The notes: generated from the sequence alone by a model not told the origin. A DNA stretch of 55,306 nucleotides from Patescibacteria group bacterium (GCA_040388575.1 JAZKBO010000001.1:74776-130081); one strand, 5' to 3'. Shown: positions 26,347 through 35,541, counted from the stretch's first letter. Numbers and translations: made by a program.

Positions 26347-27612
26347 ATGTATAACAGCAACCCGGCTAGACCGAGTAAATTCGGCAGCCACACTTCTTTT
26401 AGGGCGAAACCTCGCTTTGGTGGAGGCAAATTTAATAATTCACGATCTCGCTTTAACGGAGGCAGAAGCGGTGGTAAATCTCGCGGTCAAAGAGGCGAGA
26501 GGATAGACTTTTCACGTTTCATAAAAAAAGCAATCCATGTGGAAGAGAAGCCTTATGTTTCTACCCACACATTTGCCGACTTTCCTTTTAACCCGCAACT
26601 TCATAAAAATATTACCTCCACCGGCTTTATCCATCCCCGCCCTATTCAGGACCAAGCTATACCATCCGTATTAAAAGGCATGGATGTTTTCGGCATGGCT
26701 AATACTGGTACAGGTAAGACCGCAGCCTTCCTCTTACCTTTGATTGAAAAGATTTCAAAAACTAAAGGCTTAAATAAACGCGAAACTGTGCTAATAATGG
26801 CGCCGACTCGTGAGCTCGCACTTCAAATAGAAAGTGATTTCAAAAAGCTCGCCTTCGGCTTCGGGATGTTTTCCGTGGCATGCGTGGGTGGCTTGCCAAT
26901 TAATAAACAAATTCGTGAAATTAAAATGGGAGTTTCTTTTGTAATCGGCACTCCAGGTAGACTCCGCGATCTTATAGACCAGAAAATATTAGACCTTTCT
27001 ACTTGCCACTCTGTGGTGCTAGATGAAGCGGATAGAATGCTGGACATGGGCTTTCGAGATGACATGGTGTATATAATCGGCAGGACAAATAAGGAACGCC
27101 AGACACTATTCTTTTCCGCGACACTTTCACCGGAGATTCGTAAACTTACCGAGCAATACCTCAAAGACCCTATTTTTATTTCCGTAATTTCTGGTGAAAC
27201 TGCTAAGAATATTGATCAGGATGTAGTGCGTTTCAAAACCAAAGAGGAAAAGTTAGAAAAGCTGCATGAAGTTTTAAATAAAGATGGATCCGATAAGGTG
27301 CTGATATTCCGTGAGATGAAGCACAGCGTGGACACTCTAGCTAAAGAGCTTGCCCAGCGTGGATTCAAAGTAGGCGGCATTCATGGTGACAAGCGTAGCC
27401 GCGAGCGTATCCGTATACTCGACTCTTTCAAGCAAGATAAAATAAATATACTTATTGCTACCGATGTGGCCGCGCGCGGGCTCGATATTCCAGACGTAAC
27501 ACATGTCATCAACTACGACGTACCACAAACCTATGATACTTACGTGCACCGCATCGGCCGTACCGGCCGCGCTGGCAAGAAGGGGACAGCCCTGACTTTT
27601 GTACCGGCGTAA
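26347..27612 (+). CDS. DEAD-box ATP-dependent RNA helicase with Arg/Gly-rich N-terminal tail
   Basis: ANTGTGKT, PTRELA, DEAD (VLDEADRMLD), SAT and HRIGRTGRAG motifs. Confidence 0.9.
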   Translation: MYNSNPARPSKFGSHTSFRAKPRFGGGKFNNSRSRFNGGRSGGKSRGQRGERIDFSRFIKKAIHVEEKPYVSTHTFADFPFNPQLHKNITSTGFIHPRPIQDQAIPSVLKGMDVFGMANTGTGKTAAFLLPLIEKISKTKGLNKRETVLIMAPTRELALQIESDFKKLAFGFGMFSVACVGGLPINKQIREIKMGVSFVIGTPGRLRDLIDQKILDLSTCHSVVLDEADRMLDMGFRDDMVYIIGRTNKERQTLFFSATLSPEIRKLTEQYLKDPIFISVISGETAKNIDQDVVRFKTKEEKLEKLHEVLNKDGSDKVLIFREMKHSVDTLAKELAQRGFKVGGIHGDKRSRERIRILDSFKQDKINILIATDVAARGLDIPDVTHVINYDVPQTYDTYVHRIGRTGRAGKKGTALTFVPA

Positions 27613-27626
27613 GATATAATTACGGC

Positions 27627-27860
27627 ATGAGCCCCGAAGACGCACCGAAACCATCTAGAAAAGAATTAGTAATAGATTTCAAAAAGGACAGCTTTATTGT
27701 TATTGGACTAAAGACCGCCATAAATAACGGTATGACTTTAGATGAGGCTGTCGCATCGCATCAAAAAGACATTATGGCTAACTCTCAAGATAATTTTATA
27801 CACTTAGCAGAGTTAGAAAAAGCTATACAGCAAATTAAATCGGAAATAGATAATAAATAA
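27627..27860 (+). CDS. hypothetical 77-aa protein
   Basis: ORF with TATAAT (27615-27620) ending 6 nt before the ATG (leaderless layout). No family recognised. Confidence 0.45.
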   Translation: MSPEDAPKPSRKELVIDFKKDSFIVIGLKTAINNGMTLDEAVASHQKDIMANSQDNFIHLAELEKAIQQIKSEIDNK

Positions 27861-27872
27861 AAAATACTCCAA

Positions 27873-28760
27873 GTGGAAAGTAAACCCAAAAAGATTTTAT
27901 ATATTGGAGGTGGGGTTTTAGCTGGAGTTTTTTCCGCTGGCGTTCTAGCCTCGCTACTTAAAGATGAAAAAATTTATGAAAAATTCGATGCAGTTTTTGC
28001 ATCGTCAGCTGGGGCAGTAGTGGGAGCATACTTTCTAGCCAACCAGCCAGAGGGCGCGACAATTTTTTACGATAGCCTAATTAAAGACTTTATTATGCCC
28101 ATGAATTTCTTTGGTGGTATGCGCGACCGACTCACCAATAGATTTATTCATGAAGTTCCTAGTGAAAATTTCAGAAATGCAGTTGATATTGAAAAGCTTT
28201 TTAAAGTTGTAAAAGAAGAAAATATATTAAATCTTATTGCTGTAAAAGAAAGAAATCTACCTCTATACGTAGATTTCCTAGACGTAAACGATTTTAAAAC
28301 AAAATTTGTCGATATATCCAAAAAGGATGACTTATTATATTGGCTAAGATGTGCGGTGAGTGCTGTGCCATATTATTATCCTGGCAAGACTTTATATATA
28401 GATGGAGGAATGGCAAGTTCATTTCCCTTAGAAGATATTGAAAACGTTTATCCCGATCATGATATTGTGGCCATCTTGAATATTATGCCGCAGAAATTTA
28501 TGCGTAGATTTCTAAAAGGCCTGACCGAAGGAGCAGTAGCATCCATAATGTATGGAGTGCGAATCTGGCCAGTTTTTCTAAAGCGCGACTATTTATTTCT
28601 AAGACAGATGCGCACAATTAAACAACACAAAAATCTAACAATTGTTTCGCCACCCAACTCACTAAATTTATGGCCCAATACTACAAATAGAAAAAAGCTC
28701 TTGCGAGCTTTTGAGGAAGGGAAGGTGGCAGGGGAGAAACTTTTAATTGAGCTTAACTAG
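27873..28760 (+). CDS. patatin-like phospholipase
   Basis: GTG start. Oxyanion GGGVLAG, nucleophile elbow ASSAG (a GxSxG variant), and catalytic Asp in YIDGGMAS. Confidence 0.75.
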   Translation: MESKPKKILYIGGGVLAGVFSAGVLASLLKDEKIYEKFDAVFASSAGAVVGAYFLANQPEGATIFYDSLIKDFIMPMNFFGGMRDRLTNRFIHEVPSENFRNAVDIEKLFKVVKEENILNLIAVKERNLPLYVDFLDVNDFKTKFVDISKKDDLLYWLRCAVSAVPYYYPGKTLYIDGGMASSFPLEDIENVYPDHDIVAILNIMPQKFMRRFLKGLTEGAVASIMYGVRIWPVFLKRDYLFLRQMRTIKQHKNLTIVSPPNSLNLWPNTTNRKKLLRAFEEGKVAGEKLLIELN

Positions 28761-28804
28761 CTTTAATCAGTCCAGCTTTGAGGAGGGTAGCATAGGCGCC
28801 ATTC
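28753..28804 (-). pseudogene. orphan 3'-terminal fragment of an rpmB (L28) gene
   Basis: The minus strand reads NGAYATLLKAGLIKAS*, against KNGAYATLLKAGLIKAQ* at the real rpmB end. 34 nt are identical, then 18 nt carry mostly synonymous differences. An in-frame stop 2 codons upstream shows it is only a fragment. Confidence 0.75.
28771..28804. repeat. 34-bp perfect direct repeat, copy 1 (TCCAGCTTTGAGGAGGGTAGCATAGGCGCCATTC)
   Basis: Identical to 32042-32075. Confidence 0.95.
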
Positions 28805-28860
28805 GGTTATCCCCAGTTTTCATTGTTATGTGGCGCATAGGGTGATAAAATTTAAGTAAT

Positions 28861-30966
28861 ATGAGCTTGAAGAAAATTATTTCTTCGCATCATCTAAAAT
28901 TCTCATTAATAGTTTTTGTTTTCGTAATTGTTTTTTCTTTTTCCAATTCGGTTTTTGCTGATGTTGGACAAGCTGTCTACACTGATTTTGATTCTGGTGG
29001 ACCACAAGCTACATTCGAAGCTTTCCTCGGGACAAATGGATCAGGAACCGCAACCGCTTTTACTTTTTATACTGATAATCCTACGGGGTGGACTACGGGG
29101 TCAGTATACACAGGTGGATTTATTAGTTTAACGGCTTGCGATAATGATGCCACGACAGAGTCATCTGGTGGTGGAACTAATTGCAATAATCGTACACGTC
29201 ATAATGTTAGTTACGGAACTGGAAGTATATCTGCAACCGGTAACTTCGTAACTGTTGATTTTGGAAGTGCGGATGTTACCCTTGATTCAAGTAAATATTA
29301 TATTTTTGTTTATTTTTCTGGCGCAGGCAATCCTTCTGGGAGTGGGTTTGGTGGTAGTTCCCTGGGGTTTACTTCGACAGCCAATTCTCATTGTCGTATT
29401 GCTTGTGTTTCCTTGCAGGATTATTACTGGAATTTAGTCGGTGCTAGTGGTTTGTATTTTCCCAATCATAGTCCGTATAGTGGTACACAGTATTTTGCAA
29501 CTTCCAACGGCACTACTGATATTACACCAGATGCTGGTTTCTACTCTTCATGTAATGGTTTAAATATTAGCATTCGTAATAATCCTCCAGATAGTCTTTG
29601 GGGCAATATTCATACCTTTTCTCCTCAAAACTCAGGCGCGATTACTATTAGTCCCTACAGCCATGCTCATGATCCAGGTGGACTACATCAGTTTATGATG
29701 GCTTGTGATGGTTCGGGCACTTTTCTTGACCCAGAAGCCTATATTCTCTATAACTATTCGAGCGGTGCTATTTCCGGCGTAACTGTTGACGTCTCTAGTG
29801 ATATCACTGATTCTACTACATGGCACAGCAACACTATTTATGTGGTACATGGCGACATTGAAATAACATATGGGGATACTCTAACTATTGAACCAGGCAC
29901 CCTTATTAAGTTTGACGAAGACAGCAGCCTGACAGTAAATGGAGTTCTGGATTCAGAGGGTGAGTTAAATCTAGATGGCTCACCAAAAAATATACTAATG
30001 ACTTCTATTAATGATGATGTTATTAGCGATACAAATAATGATGGTCCCTCAACTGGAAGTCCCGGTGAATGGAAGGGAATTGTAATTGGTTCGGGGGGTA
30101 GTGCTACCTTTGATTACACACGGATTTTTTATGGTGGACAATCTGGTGGCACAGAAGCAGAAATATATAATGATGGGGGAACTCTGTCAATTACTAATTC
30201 TGCAATTTCTTATGGCACAACATACGGAATTTATAACGATTCAGGAACAGCGACAGTCGCCACTACTGACATAAGTTTTCATGATTATGGAGTTTACTTA
30301 AACGGGGGCAGCGCAACCATTTCCAGTGCTAATAAAATTCACCAAAATAATTTATTTGGTATCTTTAACGATACTGTTTCCGAAATTAATGCTGAAAATA
30401 ATTATTGGGGAGACACAAGCGGTCCTTATAACGACCCTGAAAACCTATACGGTCTTGGTAATGCAATTTATGGTGATGTAGATTTTGACCCATGGAACAG
30501 TGATTCTAATTACATAACAAATGAAAGAATTCCTGAAGAATGTGGCGATTATAATGATTGCACTTCCGTGTATGATGATGTGGTTCTTTGGAAAAATTTA
30601 AATGTGGATTTGGAATGTTCCGATGCTCTAGCTGATGCGATAGATACATGGGAAGGAGTGGATAATGTAATAACTTTTACTGAAGAAAATTCTTCACCCA
30701 ATTTAGCTTTTGCAGAGCAGTCCCATGATGATGTTCCCTGGTTGGCGGAGTGGAACCCAGCGACTTCCCCTGATTCTATAATAATCAATGACTATTATGT
30801 TCCTAACGAGACCTGCGATCAAATGCAAAACTCCATTACTCATGAAATCGGACACGCCCTCGGTCTGAGCCATAGTTATACGGGCAATGTTATGTACTAT
30901 GCAGTAATACCACAAACCACCTTAGGACCACAGGATCTTTTAGATTATCATTATTTATGGCATTAA
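28861..30966 (+). CDS. secreted protein with parallel beta-helix repeats and a C-terminal metzincin zinc protease domain
   Basis: 701 aa: N-terminal TM/signal, repeated NxxG..I.N-type beta-helix segments, HEIGHALGLSH (HExxHxxGxxH) and a downstream Met-turn (NVMYY). Confidence 0.75.
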   Translation: MSLKKIISSHHLKFSLIVFVFVIVFSFSNSVFADVGQAVYTDFDSGGPQATFEAFLGTNGSGTATAFTFYTDNPTGWTTGSVYTGGFISLTACDNDATTESSGGGTNCNNRTRHNVSYGTGSISATGNFVTVDFGSADVTLDSSKYYIFVYFSGAGNPSGSGFGGSSLGFTSTANSHCRIACVSLQDYYWNLVGASGLYFPNHSPYSGTQYFATSNGTTDITPDAGFYSSCNGLNISIRNNPPDSLWGNIHTFSPQNSGAITISPYSHAHDPGGLHQFMMACDGSGTFLDPEAYILYNYSSGAISGVTVDVSSDITDSTTWHSNTIYVVHGDIEITYGDTLTIEPGTLIKFDEDSSLTVNGVLDSEGELNLDGSPKNILMTSINDDVISDTNNDGPSTGSPGEWKGIVIGSGGSATFDYTRIFYGGQSGGTEAEIYNDGGTLSITNSAISYGTTYGIYNDSGTATVATTDISFHDYGVYLNGGSATISSANKIHQNNLFGIFNDTVSEINAENNYWGDTSGPYNDPENLYGLGNAIYGDVDFDPWNSDSNYITNERIPEECGDYNDCTSVYDDVVLWKNLNVDLECSDALADAIDTWEGVDNVITFTEENSSPNLAFAEQSHDDVPWLAEWNPATSPDSIIINDYYVPNETCDQMQNSITHEIGHALGLSHSYTGNVMYYAVIPQTTLGPQDLLDYHYLWH

Positions 30967-30976
30967 TATAATATAT

Positions 30977-31111
30977 ATGTTACTAAAAAATAAATTATTT
31001 TTAATAATTCTGGGGATTTCATTGCTTGTTGTTGGAGGGATATATATTTATTACAACAAGTATTATAACGTAAATATTAAATCTCCTATTCCAGTGGAAT
31101 CAATTTACTGA
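30977..31111 (+). CDS. possible 44-aa single-TM peptide
   Basis: MLLKNKLFLIILGISLLVVGGIYIYY... lies between two larger genes and is below the ORF-track cutoff. 3 nt before the next ATG. Confidence 0.3.
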   Translation: MLLKNKLFLIILGISLLVVGGIYIYYNKYYNVNIKSPIPVESIY

Positions 31112-31114
31112 GTT

Positions 31115-31987
31115 ATGATAAAAAAAATAATAAAAAATAATATTTTCCAATCAACATCACTACTTTTTATTAGTGGAATAATATTATTTATTACTCTACA
31201 TAGTTACTTTAATAAAGCCCGGATTTTAGTACGAATCATACACCCTCAGTATGTAGCAGATTTTTCTGATGATCAAGTTTTGATGGGTGCATCACATAAT
31301 GTTTTTATTGGGAAAGTTATAGAGCGAGTCGGTACAAAAGAGAGGGGTATAGGCCCTGAAACCCAATTTAGCGTAGAAGTATTAGAAAACATAAAAGGAG
31401 ATTTAAAAGATACGGTGACAGTTGACCAAGCCGGAGGCTATAAGGATGGTGTGCTGTATGCTGTATCCGAAGAAGGTGGCAGTAACACAAAAACAAATAA
31501 AGAAAGTTTGTACCTATTGCAGCCAGGATCAACGTATCTTTTTGCAACAAGATACAATGAGAAGGAAAATTGGTATACACTCAACTCCTATCCAACTGCA
31601 AGTAAAGTTTTAGATGATGGTAGTATCTCGGACAATGCTCAACTAAAAACAATAGCTGATAATGATTCAAGAGTGCAAGCACTAAAGAATGCTTATTTAA
31701 ATGAGGTTCCATTAGACGCTGATTTAAAGAGTAACAATGCTTTAAATAGTTATGTTTCTGTGCAAGAAAAACTTAAAGGTCAGGAGGAAAGTAATCCAGA
31801 ACCTGACAAGAAGGAGGATACTGTAAGTCCTACTAAAGTAGACGAGACTCCAACTGATATGCCCGATCAAAATACCAATGCGCCTGATTCCGCGATGACA
31901 CCCTCATCTCCGGAAAATGATACTCAAAATCCGCCCGCAGAAGTGTCTAATCCTGACCCTATTGATTCAAATACCGTTTCACAATAG
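31115..31987 (+). CDS. hypothetical membrane-anchored protein with Pro/Asp/Thr-rich disordered tail
   Basis: 290 aa: N-terminal TM, a globular middle, and a low-complexity C-terminus. No family recognised. Confidence 0.6.
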   Translation: MIKKIIKNNIFQSTSLLFISGIILFITLHSYFNKARILVRIIHPQYVADFSDDQVLMGASHNVFIGKVIERVGTKERGIGPETQFSVEVLENIKGDLKDTVTVDQAGGYKDGVLYAVSEEGGSNTKTNKESLYLLQPGSTYLFATRYNEKENWYTLNSYPTASKVLDDGSISDNAQLKTIADNDSRVQALKNAYLNEVPLDADLKSNNALNSYVSVQEKLKGQEESNPEPDKKEDTVSPTKVDETPTDMPDQNTNAPDSAMTPSSPENDTQNPPAEVSNPDPIDSNTVSQ

Positions 31988-31995
31988 TCTTAAAA

Positions 31996-32026
31996 ATAAA
32001 AAACCCTCCGAGTGGAGGATTTTTTA
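31996..32026. terminator. bidirectional terminator between island gene and rpmB
   Basis: A-run, CCTCC-GAGT-GGAGG hairpin (32005-32018), T-run. Overlaps the rpmB stop. Confidence 0.55.
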
Positions 32027-32275
32027 TTGAGCCTTGATTAATCCAGCTTTGAGGAGGGTAGCATAGGCGCCATTCTTTTTCATGGTGCGTAGGCCGCGGG
32101 CGGAAACTTCTATATTTATTGATTTATTTAATTCAGGAATAAAAACCTTCTTCTTTTGAAGATTTGGGTATTTGCGGACCTTGCCGGTAGGGTTGAATTT
32201 AGTAGCACGAGTGCGGTTGGAATATCCGCCCCCGACTATTGAACCCATCTTTGTTATATCGCATATTTTAGCCAT
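32024..32275 (-). CDS. rpmB: 50S ribosomal protein L28
   Basis: MAKICDITKMGSIVGGGYSNRTRATKFNP... 83 aa. Confidence 0.9.
   Translation of the reverse strand: MAKICDITKMGSIVGGGYSNRTRATKFNPTGKVRKYPNLQKKKVFIPELNKSINIEVSARGLRTMKKNGAYATLLKAGLIKAQ
32042..32075. repeat. 34-bp perfect direct repeat, copy 2 (inside rpmB 3' end)
   Basis: Identical to 28771-28804. Confidence 0.95.
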
Positions 32276-33889: not shown

Positions 33890-33986
33890 TTTTGCTACCG
33901 CAAATTACCCTGAGCTTGTCGAAGGGTAGTCTGGGGATAAACTATTGCTATTATACGCACTAACGTAGTGGTATAATTTAGTGGCT

Positions 33987-34880
33987 ATGATCAACGCAGA
34001 TCTTTTGAACTATATCAAACAAGCACAGCTCTCTGGTAAATCTATCGAAGTTATCAAACAAGAACTCGCCACCGGCGGCTGGAATGCTGCGGATGTCGCT
34101 GAAGCACTACAAAGTCTTTCCGTTGGAGTTTCAGCGGTGACTCCTGCCATGGCCGCTACTGCTGGAGGTATGGGCATGAAAGCAATAATTACAATTCTGG
34201 TTTTAGTCGTACTCGCTGCAGGCGGCTATTTTGCGTATTCAAAATATAAACAACCAAGCGTCGAAGAAGTAAGTATTAACCAAGAACAAACTATGAATAC
34301 TCCAACACCAACTCCTGTTGCGCAAAACACAGAATCAATTCCTGCTCCGTTTACTTGTAAAGATATATTTACAGAGTCTGACTTTGTAAGAATAACAGGC
34401 AAAGGCGCTGCAGATTACAAAGTGGAAGAAAAAACAAGCGCAGCTGCAAACGCGGGCAATTCAGCCAACCTAACTTGTTCTTACACTAAACCCGATCCTA
34501 GTAAATCTGATCCAATTTCTTTTAACCTAACTGTTATTTGGTATCCAATAAATAACGTGGCGGAAACAGATCTTGAGGTTTCTACCGATGCCTTGGTACA
34601 GAGCGCAAAAAGTATGGCAGCAGGATTTCCAGACAGTGAAGCCAAGACCCAGCAGATGAATATTGCTAAAGTCGCGGTTCCGGGCGTGGGAGCTAAAGCA
34701 TACACACTGCAGAGTGGGAGCATGGGAGGGGGATGGCTCTTTTTTCTCAGCAGTAATAAAAAATATAATGTAATGTTTACGTATCTTGATTTTGCAAATT
34801 TGGGTAAGGCAAATAATGGAGCTTTGACTAAAGAAAAATTAATCGGCCAGACTATCGATGCGCATTTAAGTAAATATTAA
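33987..34880 (+). CDS. hypothetical membrane protein (small helical N-domain, TM, TP-linker, extracellular domain)
   Basis: TGgTATAAT (hexamer 33972-33977) lies 9 nt before ATG 33987; GTG 33981 is also possible. Paralogous TM-linker shared with the next gene. Confidence 0.6.
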   Translation: MINADLLNYIKQAQLSGKSIEVIKQELATGGWNAADVAEALQSLSVGVSAVTPAMAATAGGMGMKAIITILVLVVLAAGGYFAYSKYKQPSVEEVSINQEQTMNTPTPTPVAQNTESIPAPFTCKDIFTESDFVRITGKGAADYKVEEKTSAAANAGNSANLTCSYTKPDPSKSDPISFNLTVIWYPINNVAETDLEVSTDALVQSAKSMAAGFPDSEAKTQQMNIAKVAVPGVGAKAYTLQSGSMGGGWLFFLSSNKKYNVMFTYLDFANLGKANNGALTKEKLIGQTIDAHLSKY

Positions 34881-34902
34881 TTATCAGTAAATTAACTCAA
34901 GA

Positions 34903-35541
34903 ATGAACTCTAAACTAATCATATTTATCATCGCCTTGCTGGTCATAAGTGGTGGATACTTTGCATATTCAAAATATTACCAACCAAGTGTCGAAAAAAT
35001 AAATATTAACCAAGAACAAGCCATGAATAATACTCCAACACCTACACCCACTTACCCAGCAACTAATAAAAATCCATGTGACACCATAAAAGATCTTGGT
35101 GAAGGGTTTGTTCATCCCGAATATTCTAAAAATGGTGTTAAGGTAGGCCAACCCGAAAATTTCCCTGCCAACCTAATTCCTCCTGGCAGTACCGCGATGG
35201 AATACTACATAAGCTCTGAAAATAAGCAAAGAACTGAAACACTATTTTGTTCCCAAAATAAAGTCCTGGATATTATTGCCAATATGGAAAATACATTACA
35301 ATCCAACTCCTATAAAAAATCTGATCCTTGGCACAAAACAGCCACCGATGCCACATTTCGCTTCAGTGTAGAAGGCACCCATCGTTTTGTTGACGGCGAA
35401 CTTCTTGGGGGAGTGGTTACAATTATGGAAGTTAGGCAAGTACCTTTTGATTCAAATAGTCCCATTGTCGGTGTCTTAATAGATATTATTGTAGATCACC
35501 GATGCATATATGGCACTGGTGGGGTTAATACGTGTAATTAA
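34903..35541 (+). CDS. hypothetical membrane-anchored protein, partial paralog of preceding gene
   Basis: Shares GGYFAYSKY.QPSVE..INQEQ.MN.TPTPTP with the upstream gene (DNA 34951-35049 against 34221-34316). Confidence 0.6.
   Translation: MNSKLIIFIIALLVISGGYFAYSKYYQPSVEKININQEQAMNNTPTPTPTYPATNKNPCDTIKDLGEGFVHPEYSKNGVKVGQPENFPANLIPPGSTAMEYYISSENKQRTETLFCSQNKVLDIIANMENTLQSNSYKKSDPWHKTATDATFRFSVEGTHRFVDGELLGGVVTIMEVRQVPFDSNSPIVGVLIDIIVDHRCIYGTGGVNTCN

Follow-up and report, generated by a model that had tools for sequence, protein, structure and literature searches.

Small gene cassettes enter between rpmB and a DEAD-box helicase gene in Patescibacteria and leave stranded gene ends behind

How does foreign DNA come to lie in the end of an essential ribosomal-protein gene when it brings no recombinase of its own? 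The question is raised by an island in a 55,306-nucleotide stretch of DNA from a Patescibacteria group bacterium (GCA_040388575.1, JAZKBO010000001.1:74776-130081; this whole stretch is called the window below, and positions in it are counted from its first letter). The island lies between a patatin gene and rpmB, the gene of ribosomal protein L28, and is bracketed by a 34-bp direct repeat; a preliminary description, made from the sequence alone, had read it as the product of site-specific integration into the 3' end of rpmB. Ribosomal-protein operons, EF-G/EF-Tu and thyA/folA mark the window as ordinary chromosome. Homologs of the proteins encoded in the island are recorded under the names Parcubacteria, Paceibacterota and Nomurabacteria, which makes the host a Patescibacterium, of the Parcubacteria/Paceibacteria type and thus an ultra-small member of the Candidate Phyla Radiation (CPR). 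The nearest tRNA gene is more than 10 kb from the insertion, and no tyrosine or serine integrase or other recombinase was seen among the open reading frames (ORFs) of the window, which were judged by eye only.

The repeat, TCCAGCTTTGAGGAGGGTAGCATAGGCGCCATTC, is perfect and occurs exactly twice in the window, at 28771-28804 (distal copy) and 32042-32075 (proximal copy). Further copies with up to three mismatches were not found there (none expected from 100 shuffles), and the exact 34-bp core has no match in the GTDB representative genomes; it is therefore not a generic terminator or repetitive extragenic palindromic (REP) element, which would have spoken against the initial reading. The proximal copy sits within the last codons of an 83-aa ORF on the minus strand (32024-32275), which is the live rpmB (Pfam Ribosomal_L28, 2.6e-11). 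The distal copy, read on the minus strand through the codons NGAYATLLKAG, runs on in frame to a stop of its own, as had been noticed before: it continues CTG ATT AAA GCT AGT TAA (..NGAYATLLKAGLIKAS) where the live gene has TTA ATC AAG GCT CAA TAA (..LIKAQ), so that five codons and a stop follow the core and the distal end reads LIKAS*. These two 18-nt tails (28753-28770 and 32024-32041, both minus strand) are identical at 11 of 18 positions; of the four codons that differ, three encode the same amino acid and the fourth exchanges Q for S. Mismatches are thus distributed very unevenly, with 0/34 in the core and 7/18 in the tail (Fisher p = 2.4e-4). The in-frame rpmB homology at the insertion amounts to 52 nt in total, 34 identical and 18 diverged, and the insertion that the repeats bracket to 3,271 bp, spanning 28805-32075 or, equivalently, 28771-32041.

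A comparison of relatives shows what the site looks like when nothing has been inserted. With L28 as anchor we collected 80 metagenome loci (78-93% identity to the L28 of the window; the best 80 of 446 confirmed relatives; single loci are referred to as L002, L004 and so on). Their common gene order is rpsG-rpsL-M50 in one orientation, then rpmB in the other, converging on the gene of a DEAD-box helicase, which is followed by thyA. The helicase gene is the conserved far flank of the site; it was found downstream of rpmB in 64 related loci, and in the window it lies at 26347-27612 (plus strand; Pfam DEAD and Helicase_C). Among the 64 loci in which the distance between the stop codons of rpmB and the helicase gene is measurable, 28 have them -4 to 120 bp apart, which we call empty sites, and 36 are filled, with 236-2,278 bp in between; in the window the distance is 4,411 bp. 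In the closest relative (L004, 93% L28 identity) the gap is 3 bp. Judged from these gene orders, the ancestral layout is one in which rpmB converges directly on the helicase gene. The comparison that had been proposed to find empty sites has therefore produced them, and it moves the native flank: the patatin gene, previously taken as the neighbour of rpmB, is accessory too, having been inserted into the layout that is ancestral for the clade. Nor do relatives carry the same genes without the repeat, which would have spoken against an insertion; the closest ones lack both the island cargo and the patatin gene.

The filled gaps show that the window is one case of many. Their cargo is small and highly diverse. 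By sequence reading it includes HicAB-like and RelE/antitoxin-like pairs and NUDIX, hydrolase and acetyltransferase genes; DUF3800 proteins, a PaaX-like gene and an IS200-like element are also present, and the labels tested against Pfam are only PaaX_M, Y1_Tnp and DUF3800. None of the 36 filled gaps contains a tyrosine or serine integrase; the only recombination-type enzyme in them is an IS200-like Y1/HUH transposase, present in four. An integrase-bearing element at the rpmB or helicase site was not found in any of the 80 loci surveyed, where the largest other gap is 2.3 kb. Inserts at this position are very small (0.65-3.3 kb), and the convergent rpmB/helicase junction is a clade-wide additive hotspot for such cassettes.

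To find insertion scars, we scanned the loci with nhmmer nucleotide profiles of the last 93 nt of rpmB and, as a control, of the last 93 nt of the helicase gene. Extra copies of the rpmB tail lie only inside the gap between the two genes, namely in the window and in L005, L015, L045, L052, L055 and L067, with a decayed copy also visible in L072. The window has one stranded tail with older cargo behind it. L067 has two, which separate three cassettes into an additive array: the live rpmB is followed by a DUF3800 and a Zn-ribbon gene, tail 1, a RelE/antitoxin-like pair, tail 2, the gene of a transmembrane (TM) protein and finally the helicase gene. All rpmB fragments include the GxYxTLLKAG codons, and they start at profile positions 2, 15, 23, 33, 38, 39, 41 and 42 of 93, so that five of eight begin within about 10 nt of each other (positions 33-42, the KKNG/A-run codons). 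The control profile also yielded stranded copies. In L028/L029, 3 nt separate a stranded helicase tail from the stop of rpmB, and the cargo is a HicAB-like pair (by sequence inspection). L015 has an IS200-like element with hairpin-bearing ends fitted exactly between two stranded tails, one of the helicase gene and one of rpmB. If incoming DNA that bore a copy of the entire convergent junction were inserted by a single crossover, this permuted order would be expected. Blocks of identity occur at no fewer than three different positions in rpmB, and in the helicase gene as well.

Which of the two ends is the native one follows from where the stranded copies lie. In L052, L045 and L015 the stranded rpmB tail abuts the stop of the helicase gene, as the live tail does at empty sites, and in the window it shares 8 nt with the patatin gene at the latter's stop, a compact overlap of two convergent ends (28753-28770; nhmmer rpmB-tail profile match 28754-28804, E = 6e-10). 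It still has a terminator-like hairpin about 40 nt downstream of its stop (28693-28712, minus strand, from a terminator scan), which lies inside the 3' coding region of the patatin gene and probably served rpmB as its original terminator before it was orphaned. Hence the native end is the stranded one, and the cargo, the live tail and the terminator of that tail came in from outside. The replacement end at 32024-32041 shares with the cargo operon a bidirectional terminator hairpin that arrived with the insertion (31995-32028; inverted repeat I16, also found in the terminator scan), and live and stranded tails in general each carry a terminator of their own. That an element had supplied a new gene end and left the old one stranded at the far junction, as first proposed, is thus borne out by the compact overlap, the kept terminator, the identical cores and the diverged tails.

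The divergence of blocks and tails tells the same two lineages apart. The perfect blocks are 34 nt long in the window, 38 nt in L052, 33 and 32 nt for the two copies in L067 and 30 nt in L029, and the helicase block of L015 has about 30 nt with one mismatch. All of them sit at the cargo-side boundary, and divergence then sets in towards the stop. Between genomes such identity is rare: among 1,953 pairs of genomes, only 3, all of near-identical genomes, have an identical 33-nt core, and the median is 9/33 differences. The perfect blocks are hence as similar as sequence from the same genome, and the tails differ at the level seen between species. In six paired rpmB tails, 32 of 51 differences fall on third codon positions, and the spectrum over the three codon positions (27/10/63%) matches that of live alleles from different genomes (22/17/61%), from which we conclude that both members of a pair evolved as working gene ends, in different lineages. 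The live rpmB tail of the window is of foreign origin.

The arrangement is also found outside the assembly in which it was noticed. An independent NCBI contig (L090, 99.4% identical, 13 mismatches) contains, in this order, the 3' end of the patatin gene, the stranded tail, the island, the live core and rpmB, and reaches into the M50 gene; because it covers both junctions, the integrated arrangement is not an artefact of one assembly. From three public sequencing runs (X1-X3), only contigs built with k = 31 were available for the locus. Depth in X1, the one run with even depth, is equal over the flanks and the island (about 10, 9.1 and 8.4), and the Logan contigs of this run stop within the core. 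One contig of X2 links the right end of the island to its left end via the core (32041 to 28771). We rejected it as the junction of an excised circle, since k does not exceed the length of the 34-bp repeat and coverage in X2 is patchy; every 31-mer of this contig is also present in the integrated form, which makes it uninformative. A look-up of the patatin gene returned as its only match a 1.2-kb k-mer contig that ends within the core, and an exact-protein look-up of L28 returned no record.

Several further observations concern the hotspot itself. The DUF3800 genes of L067 (10309-10906) and L075 (7653-8244) are about 85% identical at the nucleotide level, with their rpmB/M50 flanks at only about 70%, indicating a recent transfer of this cassette between lineages. 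A gene of about 160 aa, PaaX-like by Pfam (winged helix-turn-helix and Cas2-like PaaX_M), lies between two palindromes TTTAGACGGCCGTCTAAA about 530 bp apart in L052 (10283-10821), L045 (10583-11138), L055 (2644-3189), L021 (3573-4120) and L049 (9653-10200). Within these loci the module occurs only in the gap between rpmB and the helicase gene or, in L049, beside the helicase remnant, and an rpmB 3' fragment is usually found on the promoter side of the PaaX-like gene (intact in L052; decayed in L055, L045 and L072). The gene may encode a regulator or belong to a mobile module. We considered the PaaX-like protein as a hidden recombinase and rejected it, since its Pfam matches include no catalytic recombinase family. 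A compact IS200-like element of about 735 bp (Y1_Tnp, 216-228 aa) occupies the gap in L015 (3727-4465), L019 (1603-2339) and L078 (10746-11480); it has three hairpins of the form TGTCAAACA-CCCGA-TGTTTGACA, two at its ends and one within the transposase ORF. Such elements occur in the gaps of other loci and not in the window. The helicase gene is cut to a 23-aa remnant in L049 (9565-10290) and missing from L065 (3043-4035) and L076 (1349-3027), where thyA follows rpmB, so that the conserved flank is itself occasionally lost. In the window, the minus-strand sequence upstream of the distal core (28805-28850, ATGCGCCACATAACAATGAAAAC) weakly resembles the MRTMKK-coding part of rpmB from other lineages (score 27 versus 19.5 +/- 2.6 for shuffles, reached by 4 of 300); that it is an older, decayed extension of the distal rpmB fragment is only suggestive.

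What, then, inserted the DNA? The reading we favour, and to which we give an even chance, is a homology-guided insertion of the Campbell type ('ends-in') by host recombination at an additive hotspot. In Campbell-type integration, one crossover in a short shared segment duplicates this segment on both sides of the insert, and a dedicated recombinase is not needed. For the window, incoming DNA would have carried a short copy of the rpmB 3' end from another lineage, and one reciprocal exchange inside the short homology, within the last 52 nt of rpmB, would have joined it to the chromosome. The working rpmB would then take its tail and terminator from the incoming DNA, and its native ones would be left stranded 3.27 kb away against the patatin gene. 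At the hotspot, the 3' end of either flanking gene might be duplicated in this way. Sequence homology would have guided the exchange, carried out by the general recombination or replication machinery of the host and not by a dedicated integrase, and the incoming DNA would have been taken up from relatives. We prefer this reading because a recombinase has nowhere come into view, the ends of two different genes have been used, neither the blocks nor the boundaries are constant, common arms are missing from the cargo flanks, the core lacks dyad symmetry (by eye) and a notable hairpin, and the arm on the element side is identical to the host. The junctions have the composition expected of it, a block of the same lineage followed by sequence of another lineage, with either flank usable. 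The initial claim of site-specific integration is accordingly upheld as regards insertion into the 3' end of rpmB; its other part, an attachment (att) core served by an integrase, is not supported as first put, in view of the missing integrase, the variable boundaries and the helicase tails.

What is known of Campbell-type integration and of homology-facilitated illegitimate recombination in naturally transformable bacteria comes mainly from laboratory constructs and from transformation experiments, and to our knowledge neither has been described as a natural builder of cassette arrays at convergent essential genes. The hotspot resembles them in that a segment is duplicated on either side of the insert and any conserved flank can serve; it differs from the laboratory cases in the very short homology (about 30-90 nt). 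Several points weigh against a homology-guided insertion. An enzyme has not been identified, and neither a circle nor an empty-site read was observed. RecA-type exchange would operate close to its lower limit on a homology of 34-52 nt, and the longest identical runs in L015, L005 and L045 are only 9-19 nt. The five of eight fragment starts that cluster within about 10 nt could mark a preferred recombinase site, and blocks of 30-38 bp also match the size of a tyrosine-recombinase core site. The search for a recombinase was confined to the island, the window (by eye) and the 36 gaps, and a trans-acting one may be encoded elsewhere in these genomes. Lastly, the reading requires that a circular or permuted intermediate bearing a gene tail first comes into being.

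These points lead to the alternatives. It is possible, though we consider it rather unlikely, that a tyrosine or serine recombinase encoded elsewhere integrated the island, which would then resemble a cis-mobilizable element (CIME) with a 34-bp att core and a gene-end mimic, borne on attP and kept because an intact rpmB is selected for. A block of identity followed by a diverged coding replacement tail is the classic layout of integrase elements at gene 3' ends, the array of L067 is reminiscent of the leftover partial att repeats in tycheposon islands, and both the block lengths and the clustered starts are compatible with a core site; a precedent exists in integrative and mobilizable elements (IMEs) with tyrosine integrases at the 3' ends of ribosomal-protein genes (PMC5704250). 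An integrase was, however, not found in the island, the 55-kb window (by eye), the 36 filled gaps or the 80-locus survey of the site, and the blocks lie at several positions in rpmB and in a second gene. The cargo-side flanks have no common arm sequences, the palindromes of the PaaX module excepted, and the core is without dyad symmetry (by eye) and without a notable hairpin (fold z-scores -0.01 to 1.28). Further, a fixed crossover leaves unexplained why the element arm matches the host at 34 of 34 positions where relatives differ at a median of 9 of 33, and a search with a degenerate rpmB-tail pattern found the tail mimic on no viral contig.

A replication or repair error at DNA uptake, by template switching or homology-facilitated illegitimate recombination, would dispense with both the recombinase and the circular intermediate. 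Here a strand would leave rpmB at the block end, copy the donor tail, terminator and cargo, and re-enter 14-38 nt upstream, creating a short duplication of the recipient. This explains directly why a perfect block lies at the cargo-side boundary with inter-species differences beyond it, applies equally to rpmB and the helicase gene, and fits the terminator on every tail, as if whole natural 3' regions had been copied. Still, we regard it as improbable. Homology-facilitated illegitimate recombination, as known from Acinetobacter and pneumococcus, usually deletes recipient DNA and does not duplicate it; small deletions should be equally frequent, and being lethal here they would be unobservable, which makes the proposal hard to test. 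Mismatches near the boundary in L015 and L005 do not suit it either, and the rpmB fragment that stays with the PaaX module in four diverged genomes looks element-borne. The last alternative, that nothing was inserted and the rpmB end was either duplicated in situ and diverged later or misassembled into a chimera at the short repeat, is very improbable indeed. Short-k assemblies do break or mis-thread at the repeat, as the contigs of X1 and X2 did, but the independent contig spans both junctions, seven other independently assembled loci share the architecture, relatives lack the cargo, and the apparent circle of X2 carries no information. Duplication in situ followed by divergence is rejected by the uneven distribution of mismatches between core and tail together with the allele-like codon spectrum, the synonymous pattern of the tail differences being incompatible with the uniform decay of a dead copy.

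Known element classes each share part of this architecture. The 3' ends of rplL, rpmE, rpmG and rpsI serve IMEs with tyrosine integrases as targets, and CIMEs are att-flanked remnants of IMEs or integrative and conjugative elements (ICEs) that have lost their recombination and transfer genes (PMC5704250). Like IMEs and ICEs, the island occupies a small essential ribosomal-protein gene at its 3' end and lies between direct repeats, one of which forms the live end; it supplies an in-frame replacement tail, related loci carry toxin-antitoxin cargo, and relatives have the target unoccupied. In contrast to them, neither the island nor the 36 filled sites contain an integrase, excisionase, relaxase or replication gene, rpmB is not a listed target, the inserts are small, the host belongs to the CPR, and the tail of the converging gene is used likewise. 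CIMEs are matched by the attL/attR-like flanking repeats, the lack of a recombinase and the possibility of tandem arrays by accretion, as in L067. By definition, though, a CIME descends from, and is mobilised by, a cognate element that bears an integrase and uses the same site; none was found there in the 80 loci, and the repeat boundaries vary between events. Tycheposons build additive islands next to tRNA genes in Prochlorococcus and leave partial att repeats; the tyrosine recombinases that they carry direct them to tRNA/tmRNA genes, with attachment sites about 40 nt long (bioRxiv 10.1101/2020.12.28.424599). Their islands share with the rpmB hotspot a streamlined genome, a fixed position, older insertions pushed outward and partial target-gene copies between cassettes, and differ from it in that here protein-gene ends are targeted and no recombinase is seen. 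Two further classes were tried and rejected. An integron gene cassette would have an attC hairpin and an IntI integrase with attI; neither junction has a structured element (the DNA fold z-scores are those given above), and an integrase was not found; an Rfam scan returned nothing above threshold. A transposon or insertion sequence with target-site duplication is contradicted by the lack of terminal inverted repeats at the island ends and of a transposase, and a repeat of 34 perfect and 18 diverged nucleotides is not a simple target duplication. Literature searches turned up neither a paper that connects rpmB to integrative elements nor anything specific to islands in Patescibacteria.

Beyond the single locus, we tentatively propose that CPR bacteria may build integron-like additive arrays of single-operon cassettes between convergent essential genes without an integrase, the cassettes travelling with a short copy of a gene 3' end and being spliced in by host recombination or template switching, so that the essential gene is made whole again and its old end stranded. 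If true, such recombinase-free arrays would be a general route of gene gain in ultra-small genomes. The other reading that would be new is an undescribed trans-acting recombinase that recognises protein-gene ends, which would add the 3' ends of rpmB and of the helicase gene to the targets in the IME review (PMC5704250). For the tiny genomes of CPR bacteria, about whose gene gain little is known, the locus in any case provides a concrete and repeatedly used entry point, and its stranded gene ends are readable scars that record insertion order and donor lineage. Should the insertion be homology-guided, conserved ends of essential genes would act as landing pads for which mobile-element machinery is not needed, and this would bear on the flexible gene pool of streamlined, probably naturally competent, episymbiotic bacteria.

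The island itself is a self-contained foreign expression cassette with its own putative promoter, three same-strand genes and a terminator. At its left end (28805-28860, plus strand), a promoter-like TTGTTA-17-TAAAAT with TG extension (28823-28851) precedes the first cargo gene (28861-30966, plus strand), which encodes a 701-aa secreted protein with a large N-terminal β-helix region and a C-terminal metzincin motif like that of matrix metalloproteinases (MMPs; HEIGHALGLSH ... VMY). Its Pfam match to Peptidase_M10 is just above threshold (24.5 bits versus a cut-off of 24), weaker metzincin families match too, and cassettes homologous to the island yield Beta_helix/M10 matches. The second gene (30977-31111, plus strand), taken from the ORF list, encodes a TM peptide of 44 aa; in homologous cassettes, its place is taken by small TM ORFs. 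The third (31115-31987, plus strand) encodes a 290-aa protein that has no family match and for which an AlphaFold model (pLDDT 79) predicts an N-terminal TM helix, a β-barrel of the TIMP/NTR fold and a disordered Pro/Asp/Thr-rich tail. In Foldseek searches of the PDB with this model, the best matches were TIMP-1/2, agrin NtA and PCOLCE NTR (E about 1e-4, probability 1.0). The three ORFs are thus as they had first been described, a β-helix/metzincin protein, a TM peptide and an anchored protein, and the initial impression that none is a recombinase holds as well: searches with Pfam, NCBIfam, PHROGs and PADLOC gave no such match, and the third protein has the fold just named.

A secreted metzincin next to a membrane-anchored protein modelled with a TIMP fold suggests a protease/inhibitor or protease/immunity pair. 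The closest match for this cargo, though not for its insertion, is found in Listeria monocytogenes, where a metzincin and a TIMP-like lipoprotein form a pair of phage origin (PMC8235301). Both are secreted metzincin genes beside a membrane-associated TIMP-fold protein on horizontally acquired DNA, but the island partner is anchored by a TM helix and not lipidated, the metzincin has an N-terminal β-helix, XRE regulators are missing and the host is a Patescibacterium; inhibition here would follow from the fold only. The 701-aa protein had no matches in the viral collection. The 290-aa protein has 228 homologs, named from the three groups given above and usually encoded in the same type of cassette. 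An MMP-like protease with a TIMP-fold partner, widespread in the phylum, is a plausible cell-surface or host-interaction module. Elsewhere in the Patescibacteria, homologous cassettes occupy sites unrelated to this one, namely the secY-adk interval, a position beside a Y1 transposase gene and one near recO; from this we conclude that the cassette moves. In L084 (5294-8654; also in L085 and L086) the metzincin/small-TM/TIMP-fold cassette sits between secY and adk inside the spc ribosomal operon, and the secY end is not duplicated in L084. Likewise, the other cassette loci (L082-L089) contain no rpmB or helicase tail fragments and no repeats bracketing the cassette. The gene-end scar therefore belongs to the rpmB/helicase hotspot and not to the cassette.

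Behind the island lies the older accessory content of the gap (27627-28760, plus strand), comprising a 77-aa ORF (27627-27860) and the gene of a patatin-like phospholipase (27873-28760; Pfam Patatin, 5e-15). Its GC content is 0.35-0.37, compared with 0.43-0.47 in the flanks. Both genes are absent from the closest relatives, and since L004, L002 and L003 lack the island as well as the patatin gene, the latter is an earlier acquisition. A close patatin was not found by tblastn in the 80 loci, where the only matches were a 38% fragment in L062 and a 26% match elsewhere in L003, and a patatin-based search of the GTDB representative genomes returned no relatives. Small ORFs in the position of the 77-aa ORF follow the helicase gene in L002, L030 and L031, their kinship to it being judged by eye only. 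The phospholipase weakly matches models of anti-phage phospholipase effectors (PADLOC, E = 4.5e-7; the NCBIfam lipase model for cyclic-oligonucleotide-based anti-phage signalling systems, CBASS, lies far below its cut-off). Given its absence from the closest relatives, the gene is accessory and possibly related to defence.

On the other side of rpmB, at 33981-35541, the window contains two adjacent paralogous membrane-anchored proteins (299 and 212 aa), in which a 93-nt stretch at the N-terminal TM regions is 81% identical, pointing to a local tandem gene duplication.

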